DNA of 48,054 nt from a virus (taxonomy: Duplodnaviria > Heunggongvirae > Uroviricota > Caudoviricetes). Where the stretch lies: IMG/VR virus record IMGVR_UViG_2563366844_000004; one strand, given 5' to 3'. Positions 29,551 through 29,704 of the stretch are shown piece after piece. The first letter of the stretch is position 1, and each line of letters begins with the position of its first letter. Under the pieces are notes generated by a model, which saw nothing but the letters and a program-made list of their open reading frames with translations, ran no database searches and had not been told where the DNA came from. A program made the position numbers and the translations under genes.

Positions 29551-29625
29551 TGGAGCGGGTAGCGGGAATCGAACCCGCATCATCAGCTTGGAAGGCTGAG
29601 ATAATAGCCATTATACGATACCCGC
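29551..29625 (-). tRNA. tRNA-Gly (anticodon UCC)
   Basis: Minus-strand sequence GCGGGTATCGTATAATGGCTATTATCTCAGCCTTCCAAGCTGATGATGCGGGTTCGATTCCCGCTACCCGCTCCA folds as cloverleaf: 7 bp acceptor stem, anticodon stem TCAGC/GCTGA, loop CTTCCAA, T-arm GCGGG-TTCGATT-CCCGC, 3-prime CCA encoded. Confidence 0.8.
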
Positions 29626-29628
29626 ATA

Positions 29629-29704
29629 TGGTGCCGACTACCGGAATCGAACTGGTGACCTACTGATTACAAGTCAGTTGCTCTACCTACTGAGCTAAGT
29701 CGGC
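29629..29704 (-). tRNA. tRNA-Thr (anticodon UGU)
   Basis: Minus-strand sequence GCCGACTTAGCTCAGTAGGTAGAGCAACTGACTTGTAATCAGTAGGTCACCAGTTCGATTCCGGTAGTCGGCACCA: acceptor stem GCCGACT/AGTCGGC, anticodon loop CTTGTAA, T-loop TTCGATT, CCA encoded; 3 nt from tRNA-Gly. Confidence 0.8.

Follow-up and report, generated by a model that had tools for sequence, protein, structure and literature searches.

We analyzed a 48,054-nt stretch of DNA from a virus of the Caudoviricetes (IMG/VR record IMGVR_UViG_2563366844_000004), referred to in the following as the window, and focused on two adjacent tRNA genes, tRNA-Thr(UGU) and tRNA-Gly(UCC), which lie between a Q-like gene and the lysis genes of what can be recognized as a Rac-type prophage. 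The reading that we favour, and consider probable, is that the pair is a tRNA-supply moron, whose likeliest benefit is an extra supply of two tRNAs that the host encodes in single copy (thrU and glyT each gave one match in Escherichia coli K-12). According to this reading, two functional elongator tRNA genes would have been captured from the host thrU-tyrU-glyT operon and kept as a self-contained moron.

ARAGORN called these two tRNA genes and no others in the window, both on the minus strand: tRNA-Thr (anticodon tgt) at 29629-29704 and tRNA-Gly (anticodon tcc) at 29551-29625. The order in the transcript is Thr, then the 3-nt spacer TAT (29626-29628, minus, placed by sequence comparison), then Gly, and the CCA end is encoded in both genes. 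Against the Rfam tRNA model RF00005, for which the gathering score is 29 bits, the Thr gene reached 73.8 bits (E = 2.1e-14) and the Gly gene 63.1 bits (E = 1.8e-11), which is far beyond chance in both cases. ARAGORN and Rfam agree on two intact cloverleaf tRNAs 3 nt apart, at the positions where an initial annotation made by reading the sequence had placed them. The possibility of pseudogenes was ruled out by these high scores together with the pairing, which is kept at every substitution. The anticodon loops (CUUGUAA in Thr and CUUCCAA in Gly) both comprise 7 nt, with U33 and a purine at position 37. Threonyl-tRNA synthetase recognizes the identity elements G1-C72, C2-G71, G35 and U36, and glycyl-tRNA synthetase G1-C72, C2-G71, G3-C70, U73, C35 and C36; as read from the sequence, all of them are intact in the prophage genes, and the host synthetases would charge both tRNAs. 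We also considered that the genes might be the remnant of an integration site (attL/attR) and rejected this, as both are full length and lie mid-genome, about 18 kb from int, and as the collinear prophage of E. coli 266917_2 abuts ttcA, where there is no tRNA gene.

The close resemblance to the host genes, which had been noticed from the sequence, is borne out by the alignment: the prophage Thr gene equals K-12 thrU at 76 of 76 positions and the Gly gene equals glyT at 72 of 75 (96%). Two of the Gly substitutions, C6U and G67A, are compensatory and turn a C-G pair into U-A, and the third, C25U, turns G10-C25 into a G10-U25 wobble. The host operon thrU-tyrU-glyT-thrT, located upstream of tufB, shares with the cassette the order of thrU followed by glyT. 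It differs in that the cassette lacks tyrU, the 116-nt spacer and thrT, in that the host -10 element TAGAAT is followed by a GC-rich stretch and the cassette has TATTAT as its -10 element, and in that the leader hairpin and the trailer of the cassette are phage-specific. Similarity to the host operon covers the mature tRNA sequences and stops at their ends; the host flanks, like tyrU and thrT, are missing from the cassette. In the TAT spacer, the T could correspond to position +1 of thrU and the AT to positions -2 to -1 of glyT, a match with a chance of about 1/16; this is what a tyrU deletion in captured host DNA could leave behind.

Conserved elements around the pair

A consensus scan predicted a sigma-70 promoter upstream of the pair (29768-29795, minus), composed of the -35 element TTGCGA (29795-29790), a 16-nt spacer and the -10 element TATTAT (29773-29768), with transcription expected to start at about 29761-29762. 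About 30 distinct cassettes that have no upstream tRNA share the arrangement TTGNNN-16-TATTAT/TAATAT at unchanged positions in DNA that has otherwise diverged. A 5' leader hairpin (29708-29760, minus, defined by fold and covariation) extends from 1-2 nt past the expected start to a point 3 nt short of tRNA-Thr. It consists of an outer stem GGTTCY:RGAACC, a conserved tandem GA/GA internal loop and a G-rich inner stem. In an alignment of 20 variants 84.6% of the cells of this hairpin are paired, and slid controls do not exceed 65%; both sides are altered in seven pairs, and 0 of 500 shuffles reach the observed covariation score. On the other side of the pair we observed a structured 3' trailer (29422-29526, minus; fold z = -3.6), in which a GCACUG...CAGUGC closing stem is followed by U7 and which is the probable terminator of the tRNA unit. 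The closing stem and the T-run are kept across cassettes, while the interiors are very different; other cassette types have a canonical terminator directly after Gly, and a terminator-like end was found in every type.

When we compared 42 distinct cassettes, the tRNA pair was 97.5% identical as against about 70% for the 120-nt flanks, and substitutions in the Gly stems kept the pairing 29 times and broke it 5 times. Because the -35/-10 spacing is conserved and the leader hairpin covaries, selection appears to act on expression, and taken together the comparison indicates a self-contained, presumably expressed unit under purifying selection. The cassette has the features that define a moron, namely a promoter and a terminator of its own around the cargo, both of them predicted elements. 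For this conserved architecture of promoter, leader and trailer and for the allelic spectrum of the cassettes we found no description in the searchable literature, and a search there for thrU/glyT in prophages, for tRNAs of Rac-like prophages and for ileZ/argN/argO returned nothing relevant; we regard architecture and alleles as worth a note, short of a claim of novelty.

Next, we investigated the distribution of the cassette in 5,426 complete E. coli genomes. The 550-bp region around the pair is covered to at least 80% in 173 of them, and the 154-nt pair alone was found at 6,558 places in 5,421 genomes, about 1,100 more than one host operon per genome would give. The junction pattern of the cassette occurs in at least 120 viral contigs; all viral-contig counts of alleles, spacers and arrays in the following are among the 120 matches listed. 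The TAT spacer is present in 119 of these 120. The cassette stands beside three different Q types, and this neighbourhood, the number of viral contigs and the roughly 1,100 additional places in E. coli are as expected of a useful mobile module. Among species-representative genomes, the junction was found in E. coli, Shigella flexneri, E. ruysiae, Citrobacter braakii and Enterobacter hormaechei. It was also detected in a contig of a 'Candidatus Saccharibacteria' metagenome-assembled genome and in a 423-bp Corallococcus contig, and these two occurrences (matches L138 and L141) are most likely assembly or binning contamination.

The same comparison bears on the view that the pair is a neutral passenger, that is, host DNA captured at a junction of the lambdoid mosaic which stays host-like through gene conversion and brings the phage no benefit. 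Among the viral-contig cassettes, 54% have a Thr and 45% a Gly of unaltered host sequence, homology between phages declines abruptly at the upstream boundary of the cassette, and the spacer is compatible with a simple tyrU deletion (with the chance of about 1/16 given above); these observations speak for a passenger. However, the flanks of the host operon show no homology to those of the cassette, and gene conversion with the host could not maintain the conserved promoter, the covarying leader and the terminators. The Gly allele C6U/G67A, which is common among phages, is moreover a compensated, non-host variant, and the cassette has been retained beside three Q types. We therefore consider a neutral passenger unlikely.

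Codon usage and a proposed role in tRNA supply

We calculated codon statistics with a uniform caller of open reading frames (ORFs) for 48 genes of the window and used 42 annotated K-12 genes as the host baseline. The codon ACA is used 16.2 times per 1000 codons in the window and 5.4 times in the host (ratio 3.0), and GGA 15.8 and 6.0 times (ratio 2.6), with a strong enrichment within the synonymous families (Fisher test, p = 4e-17 for ACA and 2e-21 for GGA). The suggestion of the initial annotation that the two codons might be enriched in the phage is in line with these values. ACA ranks fourth and GGA sixth in enrichment, and by absolute use they are the top two host-rare codons of the window. 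The codon argument is supported statistically as far as the enrichment goes, and a role in codon supply is plausible.

In the supply reading, the cassette would be transcribed in the lysogen from its own sigma-70 promoter, and after induction also from the many replicated copies and through Q-dependent read-through. RNase P and 3' processing would then release two tRNAs to be charged by the host synthetases, and these would read ACA/ACG and GGA/GGG, codons which the prophage uses at about three times the host rate. The arrays in which the pair occurs are of several types. Thr-Gly alone, as in the window, makes up 50 of the 120 viral contigs, about 35 have a CAU-anticodon tRNA and Lys(UUU) in front of Thr and Gly, 14 have a CAU-anticodon tRNA and Arg(UCU) in front of them, and about 5 consist of Asn(GUU), a variant Thr and Gly. 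In the larger arrays, the upstream Arg(UCU) and Lys(UUU) genes are closely homologous to each other. We take the CAU-anticodon tRNA of the larger arrays to resemble ileX, the reader of AUA; if this is right, the arrays with Arg(UCU) hold a set of tRNAs that matches the most enriched codons of the window, AGA, ATA, ACA and GGA.

Several points weigh against supply as the full explanation. AGA (9.5 per 1000 in the window and 1.2 in the host, 7.6-fold), AGG (5.2 and 0.7, 7.3-fold) and ATA (11.3 and 2.4, 4.6-fold) have no matching tRNA in the prophage. A comparison of late genes with the host had been proposed at the outset: among the late structural genes, ACA stands at 13.7 and GGA at 14.1 per 1000, less than in early genes and morons, and a benefit for virion production is not obvious. 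The Lys(UUU) and Asn(GUU) genes that accompany the pair in other phages read codons that are not rare, and because of these companions codon supply cannot explain the whole cassette family. Furthermore, gene conversion with the host copy could keep Thr identical to thrU without selection, the host codon baseline of 42 genes is small, and the expression of the pair, with its processing and fitness benefit, is deduced from sequence.

The uneven use of the two codons is also relevant to lysogenic conversion, in which the cassette would benefit mainly the lysogen instead of the virion and a constitutive thrU/glyT-type tRNA would aid the translation of AT-rich acquired genes, including trkG and the defence genes of the prophage. 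The combined use of ACA and GGA peaks at 66 per 1000 in int, 58 in the disrupted iteS and 47 in trkG, not in the late genes (about 27), and the dedicated sigma-70 promoter is predicted to be independent of Q, which would suit expression in the lysogen. Yet this is a variant of the supply model with no distinct mechanism, and the constant position in the late operon suggests a role in lytic growth, so that we regard lysogenic conversion as distinctly improbable.

Related cassettes and a possible link to tRNA-cutting immunity

All deposited phages in which we found the Thr-Gly unit carry it between Q and the lysis genes, among them the Stx phage phi467 (downstream of stxB), PhiR47_1 and JLK-2012; in the LT-IIb toxin phage SerU-LTIIb (KU052038) the cassette is annotated and present in two copies in this slot. 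The parallel that had been drawn to the slot of Stx-type lambdoid phages holds, as phi467 has the same Thr-Gly cassette between stxB and S. In 933W-type Stx phages, ileZ-argN-argO reportedly lie downstream of Q (Plunkett et al. 1999). The cargo of Stx phages resembles that of the window in its insertion between Q and the toxin or lysis genes and in reading codons that are rare in E. coli, and the unit of phi467 is identical; it differs in the tRNA species, and the window has a minimal Thr-Gly set without tRNAs for its most enriched codons. The phage vB_EcoS-683R6 is 99.8% identical to the window region and has the Thr-Gly unit in the same slot. We considered it as a virion-proven relative and rejected this, since it is a PHASTER-predicted prophage with no isolate. 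The tRNAs of the 683R6 prophage set have already been tabulated in a 2022 preprint, and RefSeq and GenBank records already annotate both tRNAs. The pair is thus real and correctly read but ordinary, being annotated in many records, and tRNA cargo between Q and lysis genes is of a known kind.

For tRNA-Thr(UGU) a function in this slot has already been characterised, in the lambdoid phage 21. According to a 2025 study, the P2 Old protein aborts lambda mainly by cleaving the host tRNA-ThrU(UGU), whose anticodon stem holds the paired CNG motifs at which it is cut; a resistant phage tRNA-Thr(UGU) rescues the cells, resistance needs a motif change and a shortened stem jointly, the tRNA-Thr of phage 21 protects against Old, and 'little to no protection' is obtained from additional host tRNA-ThrU (PMC12445682). 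The main targets of PARIS AriB are Lys(UUU), Thr(UGU) and Asn(GUU) (PMC12409363). The tRNA that P2 Old destroys, which accounts for the classic interference between P2 and lambda, is the one duplicated in the cassette, and a counter-defence role would mean that the phage tRNA-Thr(UGU), perhaps also the Gly, replaces host tRNA cut by Old or AriB and sustains the synthesis of late proteins. The UGU anticodon is that of the host tRNA targeted by both enzymes (PMC12445682, PMC12409363), the protective Thr gene of phage 21 occupies the same slot, with tR' before it and a P21-type holin after it, and the AriB targets Lys(UUU) or Asn(GUU) stand beside the cassette in about 40 of the 120 viral contigs. 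In addition, uncompensated G42Y/U43C changes of Thr were observed in about 9 of the 120 cassettes and in several backgrounds. They remove the CAG motif and reduce the anticodon stem from 5 to 3 bp, and these alleles carry both features that are jointly needed for resistance to Old. The Thr of JLK-2012 (L007 4081-4156, minus; not called by ARAGORN), which has such changes as well, is a chimera, with the first 25 nt as in Thr21 of phage 21 and the rest as in thrU, and it adjoins an Asn gene identical to that of phage 21.

The window Thr does not have these features. Being 100% identical to thrU, it keeps C28-U-G30 / C40-A-G42 and the AriB site U36-A-A-U-C|A41, and its anticodon arm ACUGA-CUUGUAA-UCAGU is that of thrU, with neither the altered cleavage motif nor the short stem of a resistant decoy; a tRNA-ThrU of host sequence was reported to give no rescue from Old (PMC12445682). 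A Gam-type RecBCD inhibitor, the known trigger of Old, had no Pfam match among the ORFs of the recET region of the window. There is no reported nuclease specific for Gly(UCC), and Gly is unmentioned in the main text of the Old paper. We tried glyT as a predicted Old substrate on the basis of C28-N-G30 / C40-N-G42 and A37 and gave this low weight, as tyrU has the same motif and is not a reported target. Rescue from a Firmicute enzyme that recognizes every Gly and Thr isoacceptor by its acceptor stem was likewise rejected: UGU and UCC tRNAs alone would not suffice, and pair 6:67, altered in the window Gly, lies outside the determinants of this enzyme. For the window locus we accordingly rate counter-defence as unlikely, with supply as the best account and a neutral passenger next.

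The comparison with phage 21 (OL657228; PMC12445682) illustrates the difference. Its tRNA-Asn and tRNA-Thr(UGU), or tRNA-Thr21, are placed between pR'-tR' and S21, the slot that the window pair also occupies; here, too, the late strand is used and genes for a P21-type pinholin and an endolysin follow immediately. However, Thr21, which protects against Old, departs from thrU at 26 of its 76 positions; its anticodon stem comprises 4 bp and its cut sites are altered. The window Thr, by contrast, equals the host gene and is predicted to be sensitive. A Gly gene is absent from phage 21, and the tRNAs there abut tR' directly, without a promoter and leader hairpin of their own. Similarly, the tRNA-Lys/Thr/Asn of T5, which act against PARIS, and the coliphage tRNA-Thr6, which acts against P2 Old, have substitutions at or near the cleavage site, in contrast to the window allele, which has none.

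Regarding the family as a whole, an engagement in a conflict with tRNA nucleases is plausible from the sequences. A broader reading, which we put forward tentatively and with rather low confidence, is that the thrU/glyT cassette represents the 'unarmed' base state of a fast-evolving lambdoid tRNA locus that has been repeatedly re-tooled, the family being shaped by tRNA-cutting immunity. Such re-tooling would comprise the G42Y/U43C changes, recombination with the Thr gene of phage 21, switches of the anticodon to UCU or UUU and the joining of the cassette to divergent genes for Lys(UUU) or Asn(GUU). In cassettes of the JLK-2012 type, the thrU/glyT unit is merged with the Asn gene of phage 21 and with the 5' portion of Thr21. 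SerU-LTIIb has a cassette at the same position, and its flanks share 89.5% identity with those of the window across about 900 nt, in which the leader hairpin, the trailer and a long hairpin described below are contained; it differs in having two cassettes, and its copy orthologous to the window Thr (L004 5283-5358, minus) has the anticodon UCU (Arg) on a Thr body together with four other changes. A thrU body with the anticodon UUU (Lys) was seen in two viral contigs, in a 'Lys(ttt) Lys(ttt) Gly' array. A host-identical copy such as that of the window might still buffer against nucleases once it is amplified by replication and late transcription. The natural alleles, which range from host-identical ones to carriers of resistance features, form an allelic series on which supply, counter-defence or both can be compared.

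The prophage and its late region

The window is 99.95% identical to and collinear with the prophage of E. coli 266917_2, which contains intR, xisR, ralR, recT, recE, kilR, racR, ydaS/T/U/V and trkG. Because the collinear prophage carries this set from intR to trkG, the window is, by its gene content, a full-length Rac-type lambdoid prophage. The order on the minus strand is DUF1367, YbcO/DUF1364, DUF1133, tRNA-Thr, tRNA-Gly, P21-type holin, lysozyme, spanin, trkG, terminase, head and tail. The pair hence has the DUF1133 gene on one side and holin, lysozyme and spanin on the other, and it lies on the late strand, as the Q-like, holin, endolysin, spanin, terminase, head and tail genes are all on the minus strand as well; slot and strand agree with the initial annotation. 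The lysis cassette (27603-28776, minus) comprises the P21-type holin (28561-28776), the lysozyme (28064-28561) and the spanin (27603-28067), all on the minus strand and assigned by Pfam and annotation. The Q-like gene (30058-30600, minus) was identified by Pfam and by the RefSeq annotation of the 99.95%-identical prophage. Its DUF1133 protein matches Phage_antitermQ weakly, with 26.6 bits at a Pfam cutoff of 26; in reverse, Q of phage 21 matches DUF1133 weakly, and a short N-terminal motif is common to both. The label 'Q-like' appears reasonable, with the protein as a distant relative of the Q21 type and no closer.

The initial annotation had added that Rac-type prophages are not usually described with tRNA cargo. 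K-12 genomes match the 154-nt query solely at the host tufB-operon tRNAs, and from this it follows that the K-12 Rac is without the cassette; the pair is missing there only since its region is gone from that truncated prophage. The novelty implied by the statement was overstated, as about 170 complete genomes have the pair annotated. Intact Rac-type prophages thus have cargo in their late region that is no longer present in the truncated Rac of K-12.

Several further structures surround the unit. Late transcripts can reach the lysis genes solely across the cassette. Upstream of it, a terminator-like hairpin with a U-run (29947-29978, minus), found by sequence scan about 80 nt after the stop codon of the Q-like gene, is a candidate equivalent of tR' by analogy with the layout of phage 21; a conserved pR' was looked for and none was demonstrated. 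Just upstream of the cassette promoter lies an AT-rich inverted repeat with 21-nt arms (29818-29838 and 29878-29898) that are 95% complementary and separated by 39 nt. On the downstream side, tRNA 3' external spacers can act as sponges of small RNAs (sRNAs), and by analogy the trailer region (29422-29550, minus) could be released as a stable spacer RNA. It is followed by a long hairpin of about 27 bp (29340-29425, minus; minimum free energy -47.8 kcal/mol, z = -6.7), in which 27 pairs are kept in 19 variants. Because of its many G-U wobbles this hairpin is specific to the tRNA (late) strand. Related sequence occurs in 328 of the 5,426 E. coli genomes, RefSeq annotates nothing there, and the hairpin is a candidate RNase III site or structured RNA. 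A scan for intrinsic terminators located a strong terminator-like site at 29173-29192 (minus), in the gap between the tRNA region and the holin gene. Rfam families gave sub-threshold matches only for the flanking structures, for example a full-length match to STnc100 (29163-29359, minus) with 22.9 bits at a threshold of 47 (E = 0.016). This match is probably due to chance, although it lies in a slot known for prophage sRNAs and ends at the terminator-like site (29192-29173).

Elsewhere in the window, an Rfam search detected the RalA antitoxin sRNA in full length (46320-46498, minus; 220 bits); it belongs to the RalR/RalA type I toxin-antitoxin system, a hallmark of Rac. The annotated potassium-transporter moron trkG (26008-27465, minus; 38% GC), located between the lysis cassette and the terminase genes, uses ATA at 35 per 1000 codons and is high in ACA and GGA. 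At about 41375-41497 the reference prophage is about 122 bp longer, and BLAST places the window segment at two adjacent reference sites; a repeat was suspected near 41.4 kb, and no tandem repeat was found in the window. Relative to the otherwise 99.95%-identical prophage, the window has an insertion of 1,056 bp at 33507-34562 with a 9-bp target duplication, which encodes a DDE transposase (matching DDE_Tnp_1_5 and DDE_Tnp_1) and interrupts the S8-peptidase defence gene iteS. Size and duplication length presumably fit an IS903-type element. Because this transposase insertion breaks iteS, the IteA/IteS defence system is probably inactive in the window copy.

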